Shown here: one piece after another, positions 58,956-64,000 of the stretch | Layout: every line of letters begins with the position of its first letter | How positions within the stretch are numbered: position 1 is the stretch's first letter | Source: Deinococcales bacterium | GTDB lineage: Bacteria; Deinococcota; Deinococci; Deinococcales; JAAFIG01 | Assembly (NCBI GenBank): GCA_043778225.1 | Contig: JAYWGM010000101.1 | Span: forward strand, 74,760-138,759 | Length of the DNA: 64,000 bases | Reading direction: 5' to 3' | The notes under the pieces: model-generated | The model's input: only the letters and a program-made list of their open reading frames with translations | The model's database searches: none | What the model was told of the DNA's origin: nothing | Made by a program: the position numbers and the translations under genes

Positions 58956-59006
58956 GCTTTTTAGGTCTAGCCACCAATCGCTTTTTAGGTCTAGCCACCA
59001 ATCGCT
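58956..59006. repeat. 24-bp tandem duplication between convergent stop codons
   Basis: GCTTTTTAGGTCTAGCCACCAATC x2; includes the moaA stop. Confidence 0.9.
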
Positions 59007-59989
59007 ACCATCGTGCGTTCGCGGATTTTGGGCAGCAAATCGCCCATTCGATCTTTTTTGTGCGCCGCCTCGAGCAGGACATCTATTAAAGCCTCGATTG
59101 GGTTAGGGCTGTCAAAGGCAGCATTGGCGTTCAGTTCGCGGTCGGTCAGTAAACAGGGGCGAACTTTACGATCGGCGGTCAGGCGCATTCTCGAGCAAGC
59201 GCCACAAAAAGGCTCGGAAATTGGATTGATAAAACCAAGTGTGCCTAAGCTGTTTGGGACTTTATAGACTCGAGCCGGACTGGATGGGTCGGTTGGCACG
59301 ACTTCAAGCACCCCAAAGACTTCTTCAATCATGGCTTTGACCATAGCGCCCGACAAAAAAGCGCTGTTATAACTTTCTAAATCCGAGTTATTAAGGTGCA
59401 TATATTCAATAAAGCGCACATGAAGTGGTTGCTCGAGCGATAACCGCGCTAAATTGACCAATTCGGTGTGGTTAATACCCTGCATCGAGACTGCGTTTAA
59501 CTTCACAGGATGCAGATTTAACTCGAGTGCTAGGTCTATGGCATCTAAAACTTGTTTGACATCGCCGCCGCCCGTGGCTTGACGAAAAATGCTTGGGTTA
59601 AGGGCATCTATCGAGATATTAACGCGGTTTAAGCCAGCCTCGAGTAATTCTTTGTGTCTGCGCCGAAACATTGTGCCATTGGTGGTCAGGGCAATGTCTT
59701 TGACTCCCGGGGTGGCTCTGGCATTATCCATCATTTGTGGCAGTTCTTTACGCAACAACGGCTCGCCACCGGTAAAACGGGCAGCATCTAAGCCCAAAAG
59801 TGCCGAAGCACGGACAAAATTATCCACATCTTTGACACTTAAACCGCCACGTGGTTCGGGGTGCGAATCGGTCAGGGGGTCGCAATAAGCACAATGGAAA
59901 TTGCAACGTGGTGTGACCGAAATTCGTAGGTCACGAATGATTCGCCCAAAACGATCCATCAATACAGTTGGGCGCTCGAGATTTTGCAT
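58991..59989 (-). CDS. moaA: GTP 3',8-cyclase
   Basis: CNFHCAYC radical-SAM motif, FTGGEPL, FCGACSRMRLTAD...PCL, terminal GG. Confidence 0.93.
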   Translation of the reverse strand: MQNLERPTVLMDRFGRIIRDLRISVTPRCNFHCAYCDPLTDSHPEPRGGLSVKDVDNFVRASALLGLDAARFTGGEPLLRKELPQMMDNARATPGVKDIALTTNGTMFRRRHKELLEAGLNRVNISIDALNPSIFRQATGGGDVKQVLDAIDLALELNLHPVKLNAVSMQGINHTELVNLARLSLEQPLHVRFIEYMHLNNSDLESYNSAFLSGAMVKAMIEEVFGVLEVVPTDPSSPARVYKVPNSLGTLGFINPISEPFCGACSRMRLTADRKVRPCLLTDRELNANAAFDSPNPIEALIDVLLEAAHKKDRMGDLLPKIRERTMVAIGG

Positions 59990-60083
59990 ATTGGCATTCT
60001 AAGCCCAAACTTTGTGTAAAAATGTTGGCAACACAACAGGGGTGCAATGAATTGGATAGACTTTCGTGGTTCATCCCCACATC

Positions 60084-60231
60084 GGAACATTGGGGTATTG
60101 TTTCGTAATGGCATCGGCTCGCTCGAGGTCAAGGTCATCAAAAATCAAAGTCGGCAATTCTTTATTCGCTAAACTGCTCATAAAAGCCCGAGCCGCAAAT
60201 GCACCAATGTACTTGGTTGCAAGGTAATCCA
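60084..60231 (-). pseudogene. Internal fragment of a PIN/VapC toxin gene (diverged copy of 62401-62549)
   Basis: Collinear nucleotide match by eye to the PIN gene, with scattered substitutions. Confidence 0.85.
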
Positions 60232-60311
60232 CTCGAGAATATCAGAGGTACAAATGCCAGTGCCAGTTTAGCAAGGGTTCTCGAGGTGGCAAGGGTGCTG
60301 CCACAAGATAG
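60232..60311 (+). repeat. TA-array delimiter repeat, copy R1
   Basis: Core GCCAGTGCCAGTTTAGCAAGGGTTCTCGAGGTGGCAAGGGTG...CACAAGATAG. Confidence 0.9.
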
Positions 60312-60404
60312 TTTTGTTTACTCGAGAACCCACGTACACGCACATATTCGAGAATTCTTAGCTTGCCATTGACAATTTATCGTAACAACAATATCATTGT
60401 CATT

Positions 60405-60860
60405 ATGATTCCAAAGTTCACCAAAACAGGTTTATTACCCGCAGGTGAACACATAGCAACTTGGGAAGAAATTGTTGCCCATTACGGAACAAATTCACAC
60501 CGGTTACGATTACTCGCAGGATTATTTGAAGCTCTCCTTGCACTCCGAACTGCTAAAAGCCAATGGATACTCATTAACGGCAGTTTTGTAACCGATAAAG
60601 AATTCCCAAATGATATTGATGCCTGTTACGACGACCAAAACCTTGATTACGACTTACTCGAGCAACTTGAACCCAGCTTACTAGAATTTGACAATGCCAG
60701 AGCCGCCCAAAAAGCCAGATTCGGTTGTGAATTCTTCCCCGCTCGAGCCGTAGCCGATAGCGCAGGTAAAACCTTCCAGCACTTTTTTCAATTTGACCGT
60801 TATAACCAAGCCAAAGGCATTATTAAACTCGAGCTAAACCAACAAGGAGGCAACCCATGA
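60405..60860 (+). CDS. DUF6932-like putative nucleotidyltransferase
   Basis: G.LP.G.H..TW.E, NGSFVT.K..PNDID, KGII.L; TTGACA-17-TATCAT 7 nt before ATG (leaderless). Confidence 0.7.
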   Translation: MIPKFTKTGLLPAGEHIATWEEIVAHYGTNSHRLRLLAGLFEALLALRTAKSQWILINGSFVTDKEFPNDIDACYDDQNLDYDLLEQLEPSLLEFDNARAAQKARFGCEFFPARAVADSAGKTFQHFFQFDRYNQAKGIIKLELNQQGGNP

Positions 60861-61252
60861 TTCAGAACGAATTGCAATACCGAGTCACAAAAACCAGATT
60901 GCGTGAATTTCAAGAAACCCAAAATAATCTTGAACAAGACGGCATCAAAGGCAAAGCACTTGAGGTGCGGCGCAAAGCAGTCGCCAGCATGATTGCCGAA
61001 CTGAGCCTTTCACTGGAGGCATTCCAAGCCACTAAAACCCAAGGTATTCCAAACACCTTGCTGAGTCTCGAGCAAATACCAGACGACCTGATTAAAGCCA
61101 GAATAGCGGCTGGATTAACCCAAGCCAGTCTTGCCAAAACCCTGCACTTAAAACCACAGCAGATTCAAAGGTACGAAGCCACCAAGTACGCCAGTGCCAG
61201 TTTAGCAAGGGTTCTCGAGGTGGCAAGGGTGTTGCAAAATGCCACAAGATAG
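60857..61252 (+). CDS. XRE-family HTH protein
   Basis: MIQNE.QY..T; LIKARIAAGLTQ..LA..L....QQIQRYEA..Y.SASL; GGAGG RBS and ATGA coupling. Confidence 0.88.
   Translation: MIQNELQYRVTKTRLREFQETQNNLEQDGIKGKALEVRRKAVASMIAELSLSLEAFQATKTQGIPNTLLSLEQIPDDLIKARIAAGLTQASLAKTLHLKPQQIQRYEATKYASASLARVLEVARVLQNATR
61170..61252 (+). repeat. TA-array delimiter repeat, copy R2 (the coding 3' end of the HTH gene)
   Basis: Same core as R1, R3 and R4; encodes YEATKYASASLARVLEVARVLQNATR*. Confidence 0.9.
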
Positions 61253-61287
61253 TTTTACTCAAGCAAATGAAAAACCAGCGACTTTGG

Positions 61288-61674
61288 TTAGCTTGGCGTT
61301 AAATTGGTTTCTATTGAACGTCCACCTTGCTTAGGAACAAGCGAAATATGTAATTCAAAATCAAGGGCTTGGGCAAGACGGGCTAAAGTCCGCAGTTCTA
61401 CGTGTCCGCTTGATTGTTCGATTTGTACAAGCTGAGGATGTTTCATGCCAGCATTCGCTGCTGCTTCCCGAAGCGTAAATCCACTTTGCTGACGGGCTGT
61501 AACAATCAGTTCTTTAAGGTTAGCGGCAAAGATAATTTCTTCGACCATGGTGTCAATCTCTGTTGTATCTGTGGTGGCTTTTGGTAAATTCTTAGCGACT
61601 TTTTTCCGACGAATTGGTTGTTTATGTGGCAATTGAGCAAGTTGAGCAAGAGCTAGTTCGGGTGTAATTTTCAT
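61288..61674 (-). CDS. XRE HTH antitoxin
   Basis: ARQQSGFTLREAA...GMKHPQL..IE......LRTL.RLA.AL...L.I.L; GGAGG RBS. Confidence 0.8.
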   Translation of the reverse strand: MKITPELALAQLAQLPHKQPIRRKKVAKNLPKATTDTTEIDTMVEEIIFAANLKELIVTARQQSGFTLREAAANAGMKHPQLVQIEQSSGHVELRTLARLAQALDFELHISLVPKQGGRSIETNLTPS

Positions 61675-61702
61675 AATCTGACCTCCAAAGTCACGGCTTG
61701 AG

Positions 61703-62116
61703 TTAATTCTTGGTGGTGCGTTTAAGTGCTTGGGTTGGTGGAAAAACCTCATAACCTTCCATCCAATGCCAAGCAATAAAAGCAGTTCGTTTAAGCAATT
61801 CGAGATTGGTCGTAACACCTGTTTTGACTTCGGCTGCACAAATATGAAATTCTTGGTCATCGGCACGATACAAATAAATTCTTGCACCACCAGCTTCGCC
61901 ACCACGACTTCTGGTTTTCAACTCGAGAATTGGATAGCCCGTAATGCCATTCAAGTAACGACTTTGCGTACCGTTAATCAAAAGGTCTTTGAGCATTTTG
62001 CCAATGGCTCGCATTCCAAGTAATTTTCGAGATTCAGCAAGGGTTCTCATATCGGTTATAAACGGTGGTTCATCCCCGAGTTTTTCTGGATTGCAAGGAT
62101 AACGGATGATAGCCAC
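61703..62116 (-). CDS. RelE/HigB (Gp49-like) toxin
   Basis: ILELKT....GGARIY, I...EVK; toxin-first order with the HTH gene; TTGACA-18-TACACT 6 nt before GTG. Confidence 0.65.
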   Translation of the reverse strand: MAIIRYPCNPEKLGDEPPFITDMRTLAESRKLLGMRAIGKMLKDLLINGTQSRYLNGITGYPILELKTRSRGGEAGGARIYLYRADDQEFHICAAEVKTGVTTNLELLKRTAFIAWHWMEGYEVFPPTQALKRTTKN

Positions 62117-62177
62117 ACAAATAGTGTAAAGCCAAAATCTTTGGTATGTCAAGGCTTACCAAAAAATCAATGAAACT

Positions 62178-62231
62178 AGTTTAGCAAGAGTTCTCGAGGC
62201 GGCGAGGGTACTGCAAAATGCCATAAGATAA
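62178..62231 (+). repeat. TA-array delimiter repeat, copy R3
   Basis: AGTTTAGCAAGAGTTCTCGAGGCGGCGAGGGTACTGCAAAATGCCATAAGATAA. Confidence 0.85.
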
Positions 62232-62267
62232 TGCTTATTACACCATGACATTACGAAGTTTAATACG

Positions 62268-62656
62268 CTAAGGCAGTAAATTAAAATGCGTGAAACCTTG
62301 TGGTTTGACCAAAGAAAAATGCCTACGGTCAAATGTCAAAATGCTTTGGATTTTATGGCGTTCGGCTAATGCCATCACGCTTGCGTCCACAAAACTAAGT
62401 GGAACACTGGGGTATTGTTTCATAATGGCATTGGCTCGCTCGAGGTCAAGGTCATCGAAAATGAAAGTTGGTAATTCTTTATTTGCTAAACTGCTCATAA
62501 AAGCCCGAGCCGCAAATGCACCCATGTATTTGGTTGCAAGGTAATCTACCTCGGGCAGTATGGTCATAGGCACAATCAGGTTTTCATTTCAAAATGATGC
62601 ACGTCTTTTTTGTTCAAAATAGCCAGTACCGCGTTTGTGTCGAGTAAAATATTCAT
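62268..62656 (-). pseudogene. PIN/VapC toxin, frameshifted
   Basis: ATG at 62656 gives MNILLDTNAVLAILNKKDVHHFEMKT*; another frame continues ENLIVPMTILPE...SFVDAS...TFDRRHF; the 389-nt span is not a multiple of 3. Confidence 0.85.
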
Positions 62657-62862
62657 TTGGGTTCGTCTTGAAAGAGCAATTCTTCATCGCGTTCAGACAA
62701 ATCCGTGATTTCAGACTCACCGATACCAAACCAACTCAGGGTTTTCTTATTGGCTTCCAGTGGCTGTTGTAATTGCAAATCAGATGATAATAAACGCACC
62801 AATTCGACTTGCTCGAGGTACGATAATTGCTTGGCTTGGATTTGAAGTTCAGCAACACTCAT
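62653..62862 (-). CDS. Putative VapB-like antitoxin
   Basis: Small acidic protein ending GIGES...DLSER.EELL; ATGA overlap with the PIN gene. Confidence 0.7.
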   Translation of the reverse strand: MSVAELQIQAKQLSYLEQVELVRLLSSDLQLQQPLEANKKTLSWFGIGESEITDLSERDEELLFQDEPK

Positions 62863-62897
62863 TGGGTCAGTATAGCCGAAAAACAATTTGGGTTCAT

Positions 62898-62985
62898 CTC
62901 GAGAATATCAGAGGTGCGAAGCCACAAAGTACGCCAGTGCCAGTTTAGCAAGGGTTCTCGAGGTGGTAAGGGTTTTACAAGATAG
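62898..62985 (+). repeat. TA-array delimiter repeat, copy R4
   Basis: CTCGAGAATATCAGAGG...GCCAGTGCCAGTTTAGCAAGGGTTCTCGAGGTGG...ACAAGATAG. Confidence 0.9.
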
Positions 62986-63041
62986 GGCGAAATGATTTTT
63001 AAGAAGCGCTAAAGAACATTTGTTTTGTGCTATACTGTTCG

Positions 63042-63180
63042 TATCGCGGTCGAACCCAGAGTTGCTGCAAGGCAGAACACTTCGACGCTCGCCCCCCGCC
63101 TTTATTGGTGGTCGGGTTTCTAGCCAGGACTGGAATACAAAAAGAAGCAGGGGGAAAAGCAGCCTTTTGGGTTGCTTTTT
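63042..63180 (+). ncRNA. Candidate structured small RNA convergent with the 182-aa gene
   Basis: Extended -10 TGcTATACT (63028-63036); nested stems GTCGAA/TTCGAC, CTGC/GCAG, CCGCC/GGTGG; terminator AAAAGCAGCC/GGTTGCTTTT. Confidence 0.6.
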
Positions 63181-63182
63181 CG

Positions 63183-63731
63183 TTAATACCTTTTGTGAAT
63201 GCGTTTACCTTGATTGGTTGCGTGAAGCAGCTTGAAAAAACCAAAATGGTTGGTGCGGTCTAATTTAGGGCGTTCGTTGCTGTTGGGGTCACGTTCATAG
63301 GCACTTTTGATGATGAGTACAGTCTGTCGTTTGACTTTCACCATATCAAAAAAGATGTCATATTCAACTTTTTGATTCTGCACATCCAGCAACTCGAGGC
63401 GAAAGTACGCACCATCTGGTAGGACATAGAATCGTTTGTTGCTCTCGTCAAATGCTCGGATTAAGTCAGGCAGCAATTTGGAAAGTTCCCATCGTTTTTG
63501 GTTAAAGTACCTATTTTTGATGCCTTCTCGAGAATGGGTTTTGCTGTAGATTGGCATGTTATCTTCGTTGCTTGAATCGGTGAATGTGTGGTCAGTAAAT
63601 GTCACCAAGACCAAGAAGTGTTTTGCAGTAGCGGTTGCTATGGCGATTTGCACAAAAGTATGTTCAAAATCATCCAAATGCGAGAGGTTAAAAACTTGAC
63701 TTTTGTGGGCGTAGGGTGTCCACCTTGTCAT
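63183..63731 (-). CDS. Hypothetical protein, possible RNase-type toxin
   Basis: 182 aa; NLSHL, V.F.DHTFT, R.F...RWELSK.LP, Y.IFF and L.IKSAY motifs; TA-island context. Confidence 0.6.
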   Translation of the reverse strand: MTRWTPYAHKSQVFNLSHLDDFEHTFVQIAIATATAKHFLVLVTFTDHTFTDSSNEDNMPIYSKTHSREGIKNRYFNQKRWELSKLLPDLIRAFDESNKRFYVLPDGAYFRLELLDVQNQKVEYDIFFDMVKVKRQTVLIIKSAYERDPNSNERPKLDRTNHFGFFKLLHATNQGKRIHKRY

Positions 63732-63752
63732 TCATTTCACGCTACTCATAAA

Positions 63753-63806
63753 GCCAGTATAGCCAAAAATGAGGTGGCAAGAGTGCTACAAAATGCTTCA
63801 AAGTAA
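63753..63806 (+). repeat. TA-array delimiter repeat, degenerate copy R5
   Basis: GCCAGTATAGC...GAGGTGGCAAGAGTGCTACAAAATGC...AAGTAA; CTCGAG lost. Confidence 0.65.
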
Positions 63807-64000
63807 GGAATATATGTACGGTATGGAAAAGACAAATTGTTTTTCAACGTATAACATAGCGAATGCTGCCTTAGTTTCTGTAAACTGTAGTATGAAAGTT
63901 GCCTTAGAGCGTGTTTATAAAGTGTCAAAACGTCTCAAAATCAACTGAATATTCGCCAAATAAGCCCAAGATTCGGTTGTACTCGGTAAACCCTCAAAGT

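Follow-up and report, generated by a model that had tools for sequence, protein, structure and literature searches.

Integron arrays carry one small module per repeat interval, their content varies among relatives and toxin-antitoxin (TA) genes are common cargo. The dif modules of Acinetobacter plasmids are often TA pairs bounded by 28-bp XerC/XerD sites in alternating orientation, and integrative islands accrete in tandem at the 3' ends of tRNA or protein genes, for example SGI1 at trmE and other islands at asparagine tDNAs. Insertion with long target duplication is described for restriction-modification units without mobility genes (PMC2853133). Here we consider five short repeats near the end of a 64,000-nt stretch of DNA (the window, meaning all the sequence analysed and the source of the coordinates below), which corresponds to positions 74760-138759 of contig C101 from a Deinococcales bacterium whose genome (G000) is a metagenome bin of 107 contigs and 4.03 Mb, 89% complete. 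A sequence-only reading of this stretch had proposed an integron-like array of TA cassettes delimited by a CTCGAG-centred repeat. We find that all five copies (R1 to R5) are the 3' end of one gene family, that of an XRE-type helix-turn-helix (HTH) gene paired with a DUF6932 gene, and that one copy is live and four are dead stubs.

The copies all lie on the forward strand, with start-to-start spacings of 934, 979, 764 and 811 nt, and a repeat search resolved them into a 53-nt unit present four times (75-100% identical to the reference), a 76-nt unit present three times and a 31-nt unit present five times. R2 (61165-61252) is the live copy, namely the final 88 nt, in frame, of the HTH gene at 60857-61252, and the other four are intergenic. 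Together, the repeat search and the listing of open reading frames (ORFs) bear out this much of the sequence-only reading, which had described five same-orientation repeats with R2 as an HTH coding tail and the remainder between genes. R1, R3, R4 and R5 each keep the HTH frame and their own stop codon, and they are therefore stubs of HTH gene ends. R1 (60231-60317) combines a left flank like that of R4 with an R2-like tail and 13 nt of post-stop sequence, with internal deletions; it reads ASASLARVLEVARVL before a short deletion. R3 (62178-62231) is cut on the left at -53 and reads SLARVLEAARVLQNAIR followed by a stop. R4 (62908-62995) is cut at -90, ends its reading in QRCEATKYASASLARVLEVVRVLQDRAK and a stop, and has flank similarity to R1 that begins at 62898. 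R5 (63771-63806) is a stub at -35 that reads EVARVLQNASK up to its stop, with flank similarity beginning at 63744. The C-terminus in question, QQIQRYEA.KYA.ASLARVLEVARVLQ, is the best-conserved part of the HTH protein family (17 members aligned), and a 46-nt stretch of R1 is 97.8% identical to the orthologue in G003, a member of the same genus.

The stubs derive from different alleles of this gene end. Compared with R2, R3 shows four synonymous changes and one non-synonymous change in 12 codons, and R5 shows two synonymous and no non-synonymous changes in 6; the numbers are small, but the pattern is that of sequences which diverged while still coding. The tail of R4 (GAT AGG GCG AAA TGA, VLQDRAK) is like that of the G003 orthologue (GAC AAG GCA AAA TAG, VLQDKAK), to which R4 is 89.5% identical over 86 nt, whereas the tail of the live gene differs (AAT GCC ACA AGA TAG). 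R2 and R4 mismatch at only 6 of 72 positions in the body of the repeat versus 9 of 15 in the tail (Fisher p 3e-5), which points to a live gene end that was exchanged and is no simple duplicate of R4. R4 is probably the displaced, older gene end. R1 is a chimera: ahead of it lies a PIN fragment that matches 62401-62549 at 93%, its left flank (CTCGAGAATATCAGAGGT) is of the R4 type, and the tail with its 13 post-stop nucleotides is of the R2 type, which is the product expected of recombination within the repeat. R5 probably began as a -90 stub and lost sequence in a deletion afterwards; its left flank (63744-63769) resembles the start of the vapB-like gene beside R4. The left ends of the stubs are unequal (-90, -53 and -35) and the junctions are of two types only, one on the vapB side at -90 (R1, R4 and probably R5) and one on the higB side at -53 (R3). 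The vapB flank on contig C49 of G003 is homologous to the window to position 62906 and divergent after it, which places the -90 junction within a few bases. No DUF6932 or HTH 5' remnants were found beside the stubs with tblastn.

The content and the order of the modules vary among relatives, and the break points are in register with the repeats. Four sequencing runs (X1-X4) were compared as k=31 contigs, X1 (possibly the source sample) and X2 being two samples of one study and X4 coming from another. In X4, a contig of 1193 nt that is 89-95% identical to the window runs from 60898-61234 on to 62978-63806 with no break at the repeat, such that an HTH gene with an R4-type tail is followed directly by a small RNA, a gene for a 182-aa protein and R5. 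This contig is without the 1743 nt that hold the higBA-like and vapBC modules in the window, in exact repeat register, and its homology to the window stops exactly at the R5 stop codon (63806). The stretch absent from X4 is flanked by 76-nt direct repeats (R2 and R4, 91% identical) that are a single copy in X4 (record 28), and it encodes no transposase, integrase or other mobility gene, as the ORFs of 61253-62907 match HTH, PIN or nothing. One contig of X3 (85-92% identical) holds the end of a DUF6932 gene, the small RNA, the 182-aa gene, 44 nt and a copy of vapB, the same layout as on contig C49 of G003, and a second X3 contig holds an intact vapC-vapB pair and then an R1-type junction, with 16 extra bases after 62577. 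The idea of reusable homology at the module boundaries is upheld by these break points in X4 and X3, and the live HTH gene is kept whole.

Relatives were surveyed in three sets: 41 genomes with a 96-nt repeat query, 18 other genomes of the family, and 80 gene-family loci from genome contigs, taken with flanks of at most 10 kb. The query matched 11 of the 41 genomes and, within the family, 10 of 18 besides G000. Sought in this way, as the sequence-only reading had suggested, the repeat does recur as live HTH gene ends (17 of 18 fetched loci hold a full-length HTH gene, the last being truncated by a contig end, and none holds a stub), but there is no second stub array in the 18 other family genomes or at the 80 gene-family loci. 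Two of the 80 loci give a strong extra C-terminal match: L141 carries a whole-module duplicate (1099 nt, 92%) and L078 a second HTH gene, its two modules lying 1.1 kb apart. L078 also has the only other stub found, a short one upstream of its DUF6932-HTH pair in which the final 24 nt of the gene are followed by 47 nt of downstream sequence (76% over 75 nt). At this locus, also from Deinococcales, a 72-75-nt direct repeat flanks the DUF6932-HTH pair, and downstream of the HTH genes (7548-8041 of L078) there are short, repeated ORF fragments that look like the C-terminal half of XRE proteins. Locus L044 has a second DUF6932 gene, and a 12-nt match after the stop codon at L038 was judged to be due to chance. 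A scan of metagenome contigs with the repeat-core pattern gave no matches.

We consider it probable, if far from assured, that the array arose as DNA was inserted serially at the HTH gene end, with that end replaced or duplicated at length, and that homologous recombination and decay among the stubs followed. New DNA would have joined into the HTH gene end at least twice, with the higB side at -53 and with the vapB side at -90, and with each join the gene end would have been replaced or duplicated over a long stretch, so that the HTH gene remained whole and the displaced end was left as a stub. Were the HTH protein the antidote to DUF6932, an insertion would survive only by restoring the HTH gene, which would explain why 3' ends alone, all in the same orientation, are seen. 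Homologous recombination between stubs and live ends, either in the genome or with DNA from relatives, may then have moved, swapped, duplicated and deleted modules, and deletions would have eroded them. Neither a dedicated recombinase nor a structured site would be needed. We infer the order of these events, the part played by homologous recombination and by DNA uptake, and the argument from selection; the decay of the modules is directly visible in a PIN fragment with a 348-nt deletion, the frameshift in vapC and the loss of the vapB' gene ahead of the 182-aa gene.

Several points weigh against this account. X4 may show the locus either as it was before insertion or after a deletion from R2 to R4, and in both cases the repeats are where the break falls. 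R1, R4 and probably R5 share one vapB-flank junction, which leaves few independent insertion events, and much of the array could stem from duplication of a vapB-plus-stub unit. The single short stub that the 18 other family genomes and the 80 gene-family loci yielded, at L078, means that the process is rare or local. The patches of homology are also short (34-42 exact bases, 53-90 nt overall), which makes them a poor RecA substrate in most bacteria, and natural competence is assumed for this uncultured lineage.

The DNA features that lend the repeat the look of a recombination site are by-products of coding sequence or of a genome-wide word. CTCGAG, which had been taken to centre the repeat, is not specific to it: it occurs 399 times in the window versus 7.9 expected, and 24,877 times in the genome (6.2 per kb), where it is the commonest hexamer. 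As a candidate recombination site it was rejected, being at or near one or two of the five junctions, which is unremarkable given one site per 160 nt. Other 6-base palindromes are nearly missing genome-wide (GGGCCC, GACGTC and AGGCCT occur once each). A literature search for CTCGAG as a 'highly iterated palindrome' (HIP) did not find it, and a HIP review is without it. The direct repeats said to flank CTCGAG (GCAAGGGT) are indeed present, but they are the codons for Ala-Arg-Val, twice, and these residues are kept in paralogues with other codons (GCT CGG GTT / GCG CGG GTA on contig C94). Over 25 codons, R2 and the C94 paralogue differ by 10 synonymous and 2 non-synonymous changes; since synonymous sites differ between paralogues, it is the protein that is conserved, and a conserved DNA site is not evident. 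The GTGGCA/TGCCAC hairpin noticed earlier in R1 and R2 is real and occurs as a dyad in those two copies only, not in R3-R5. A promoter-like site, by consensus match only, lies inside the repeat on the minus strand (TTGCCA, 16 nt, TG-TAAACT, at 60265-60292 and 61199-61226). It would read towards vapB in the R1 and R4 units, where it might help explain why the vapB units retained their stubs.

It is conceivable that a dedicated site-specific system, integron-like or similar to Xer/dif modules, built the array, with an unknown recombinase moving single modules as circles. Such a system would produce one module per interval, repeats that all point in one direction and module content that varies between relatives in repeat register, and its adjoining genes could lie beyond the data, since the contig ends 194 nt after R5 (base 64000 of the window is the final base of C101). 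However, the stubs do not share the left boundary that a fixed site would give them (-90, -53 and -35), the only dyad is restricted to two copies, the GCAAGGGT repeat is a coding motif written with other codons in paralogues and variable at synonymous sites, and the modules have their own promoter-like sites and face both directions. A search of the whole genome for PF00589 found three genes (contigs C75, C93 and C32); C101 has none, so that the earlier statement that the window lacks an integrase holds for the entire contig, sequence beyond 64000 being outside it. From 63903 on, the sequence is a DDE transposon end, and a recombinase gene could still lie beyond the transposon. No attC-type folding site is apparent either, for the dyad of R1 and R2 is the only one and the repeat is an in-frame gene end (no attC-specific model was applied), nor is there a constant att core with a single crossover and an integrase, given three left boundaries and no integrase on the contig. 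The integron-like or att-site part of the sequence-only reading is thus not supported, and we regard a site-specific origin as very improbable.

An island that once held four or five tandem DUF6932-HTH paralogues, later overwritten with their 3' ends left by chance, seems improbable as well. Duplicates do occur in relatives (the 1099-nt copy at 92% in L141, the two modules 1.1 kb apart in L078, the second DUF6932 gene in L044) and the stubs come from diverged alleles. However, four independent and clean removals of all DUF6932 and HTH 5' parts would be needed, of which tblastn finds no remnants, and the shared vapB junction, the chimeric R1 and the in-register 1743-nt difference in X4 would be left unexplained. 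Hardly credible to us is an assembly artefact, in which the contig would be a chimera of strains or paralogous loci joined via the repeat cores. Exact cores of 34-42 nt are common to R1, R2 and R4, the two PIN copies share 38 nt, the genome is a metagenome bin in 107 contigs, and the X1 and X2 contigs break at every repeat core and do not give the order. However, in both X1 and X2 five pieces cover 59000-63932 with zero differences and at equal depth (28-32 in X1, 13.5-15.4 in X2), from which it follows that the modules coexist at one copy each, and the exact cores are shorter than an ordinary read and have distinct flanks. On misassembly, which the sequence-only reading had wished to exclude with long reads, the X1 and X2 contigs support the presence and equal depth of all the pieces, but the order of the modules across the 34-42-base cores rests on the assembly.

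A further scenario, which we think doubtful, is that the defence and TA modules of this Deinococcales lineage bear a stub of a conserved antitoxin-type gene end that serves them as a portable handle for homology. After excision between two stubs, a module could re-insert by a single crossover into any live DUF6932-HTH gene without inactivating it, and such a handle would amount to a recombinase-free, selection-policed analogue of the integron in a heavily rearranged lineage. Serial insertion followed by recombination, the reading that we prefer, suggests that addictive gene pairs need no mobile-element machinery to build up where another gene of this sort ends, and that the gene-end leftovers may then act as recombination handles. 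The case also cautions that coding sequence and a genome-wide word can produce a palindrome, a hairpin and a layout like that of an integron. Its practical value is modest and lies in better annotation of stubs and pseudogenes and in a testable case of recombination-driven shuffling of defence modules in uncultured Deinococcales.

As the sequence-only reading had it, each interval between the repeats contains one module, with corrections to the identities of the modules. Between R1 and R2, the gene at 60405-60860 on the plus strand, previously labelled an NTase, is a DUF6932 gene (Pfam PF22014, E 2.7e-34) that also matches the candidate defence family PDC-M63A of PADLOC (E 4.5e-16) and is a candidate toxin or defence effector; a literature search found no paper on DUF6932. 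A promoter scan places a promoter-like TTGACA-17-TATCAT ahead of it (60369-60397). The ATG of the live HTH gene (60857-61252, plus strand; HTH_3, E 6.8e-8) overlaps the DUF6932 stop codon (ATGA). For the HTH gene family, tblastn on genome contigs confirmed 404 relatives in many phyla, and the genome holds two more intact DUF6932-HTH pairs (C94:1152-1996 and C87:3496-4316) at 45-51% protein identity. Before R1, on the minus strand, lies a fragment of a second PIN (vapC) gene (60084-60232, 93% identical to 62401-62549) with a tblastn match to PIN residues 9-59. The 348-nt deletion, which runs between CTCGGG and CTCGAG, has brought it up against the flank usually found ahead of a -90 stub, and 60232-60249 equals 62898-62915 in sequence.

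The second interval, described earlier as RelE plus HTH, does contain an XRE HTH gene on the minus strand (61288-61677, matching HTH_3 and HTH_31), a candidate HigA-like antitoxin. The RelE label for the small gene upstream of it (61703-62035, minus strand) finds no match in Pfam, NCBIfam, PADLOC or PHROGs, but a confident language-model lead makes this gene a Gp49/RelE-like toxin candidate. CTCGAG is sparse in this higBA-like segment (1.08 per kb; the DUF6932-HTH and vapBC segments have 5.5-5.6 and the genome as a whole 6.2), as would be expected of DNA that was imported, and the segment looks like the most recent import. In the third interval, the description 'antitoxin plus PIN' is right as to the PIN match and a VapB-like partner, but the PIN gene is broken. 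This vapC pseudogene (62268-62656, minus strand; PIN, E 1.3e-6 on 62268-62573) has its N-terminus in a different frame, and since the X3 contig has 16 extra bases after 62577, vapC of G000 is frameshifted. The VapB-like gene upstream (62653-62886, minus strand) overlaps the PIN gene by ATGA; it has no family match, and we name it by where it lies and by its paralogues.

The fourth interval was read as a non-coding RNA with an unknown protein, and this description stands, covariation supporting the candidate small RNA and the 182-aa protein being without a family. The small RNA (63046-63182, plus strand) has its own -10 box (GCTATACT) and a terminator and is convergent with the 182-aa gene. Five homologues were aligned, from the window, G000:C1:18700-18900, G003:C49, G003:C73 and G004:C6; they share an invariant core (GGTTTCTAGCCAGGACTGGAATA), and of the 43 predicted pairs 15 show compensatory changes. 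Among 19 family genomes, 9 contain the core motif, 12 times in all (control matches, 0), and in at least three cases the copy and a homologue of the 182-aa gene are convergent. The small RNA has no Rfam match; a scan of 59900-64000 with E values up to 1 gave as its sole match a sub-threshold c-di-GMP-I within the HTH coding sequence, which was dismissed. A pattern scan of metagenome contigs for the motif gave no matches. The 182-aa gene (63183-63731, minus strand) matches no family in Pfam, NCBIfam, PADLOC or PHROGs, and a very confident language-model lead calls it YjaZ-like. In G003:C49 and X3 it sits directly downstream of a vapB-like gene (vapB'-unk182), as if it were the toxin partner. 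In G000, this vapB' is reduced to the promoter and the first five codons, a remnant at 63744-63769 on the minus strand that is 81% identical to 62857-62882. The two-small-gene layout of TA systems is seen in the DUF6932-HTH overlap, in the Gp49-like lead beside the XRE gene and in the overlap of the VapB-like and PIN genes, and these three pairs are candidates for type II TA-type modules.

Beyond R5, the contig is broken by a multi-copy transposon, one end of which occupies 63903-64000 and matches the ends of contigs C103, C81, C38, C97, C104 and C94 at 98-100% identity. Its depth is about 10 times that of the flank, which corresponds to an element of about 10 copies, and a relative's copy encodes DDE_Tnp_1 (E 7.8e-16). 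The element is an ordinary insertion sequence and accounts for the end of the contig here. As a mobiliser of the modules it was rejected, since it is an ordinary DDE element found at many contig ends. On C94, this insertion sequence follows another DUF6932-HTH pair at a distance of about 1 kb on the downstream side, oriented relative to the pair as it is in the window. On the other side of the array, a perfect 24-nt tandem duplicate (GCTTTTTAGGTCTAGCCACCAATC, twice, at 58956-59003) lies between malQ and the 3' end of moaA. A comparison downstream of moaA across relatives, suggested as a check on cassette content and order, was run on six genomes of the genus (from the G001-G007 set) and proved uninformative: the neighbour of moaA is different in every one, so that no empty-site comparison is possible. 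In all of these genomes malQ is on a contig other than that of moaA, and gene order is scrambled down to single genes.

How, then, does the array relate to the systems described elsewhere? No paper on arrays of this kind at the ends of antitoxin genes turned up in literature searches, and a search on TA systems with homology-facilitated illegitimate recombination returned one unrelated modelling paper. Integrons and integrase-less cassette clusters share with it one small module per interval, TA cargo and variable content, but the array has no IntI and no attC-type folded site, its cargo is of mixed orientation with its own promoters, and its repeat is a coding fragment. Dif modules are likewise small, discrete and often TA pairs bounded by a short repeated site, whereas the copies here are all direct and have no dyad. 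Island accretion is similar in that an array of gene-end direct repeats has the live gene restored at one end and older ends displaced distally, but here there is no integrase, the units measure 0.7-1 kb and the left repeat boundaries vary. Insertion with long target duplication is like the present case in involving a small selfish unit without a mobility gene and direct repeats of more than 30 bp that align to a single copy in an insert-free relative (R2 and R4 versus X4), and in that the target here is a gene end kept intact. It differs in that the cargo here consists of TA-type modules in place of restriction-modification genes, a single target bears a stack of several stubs, and R2 and R4 differ sharply in the last 15 nt, such that the incoming DNA seems to have brought its own gene end, with later exchange between stubs being evident. 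The kind of event is thus known, and what distinguishes this locus is the TA cargo, the stacking of stubs at one antitoxin-type gene, the exchanged gene ends and the variants in other metagenomes. The array is not an integron; it is a known route for selfish genes to pile up.

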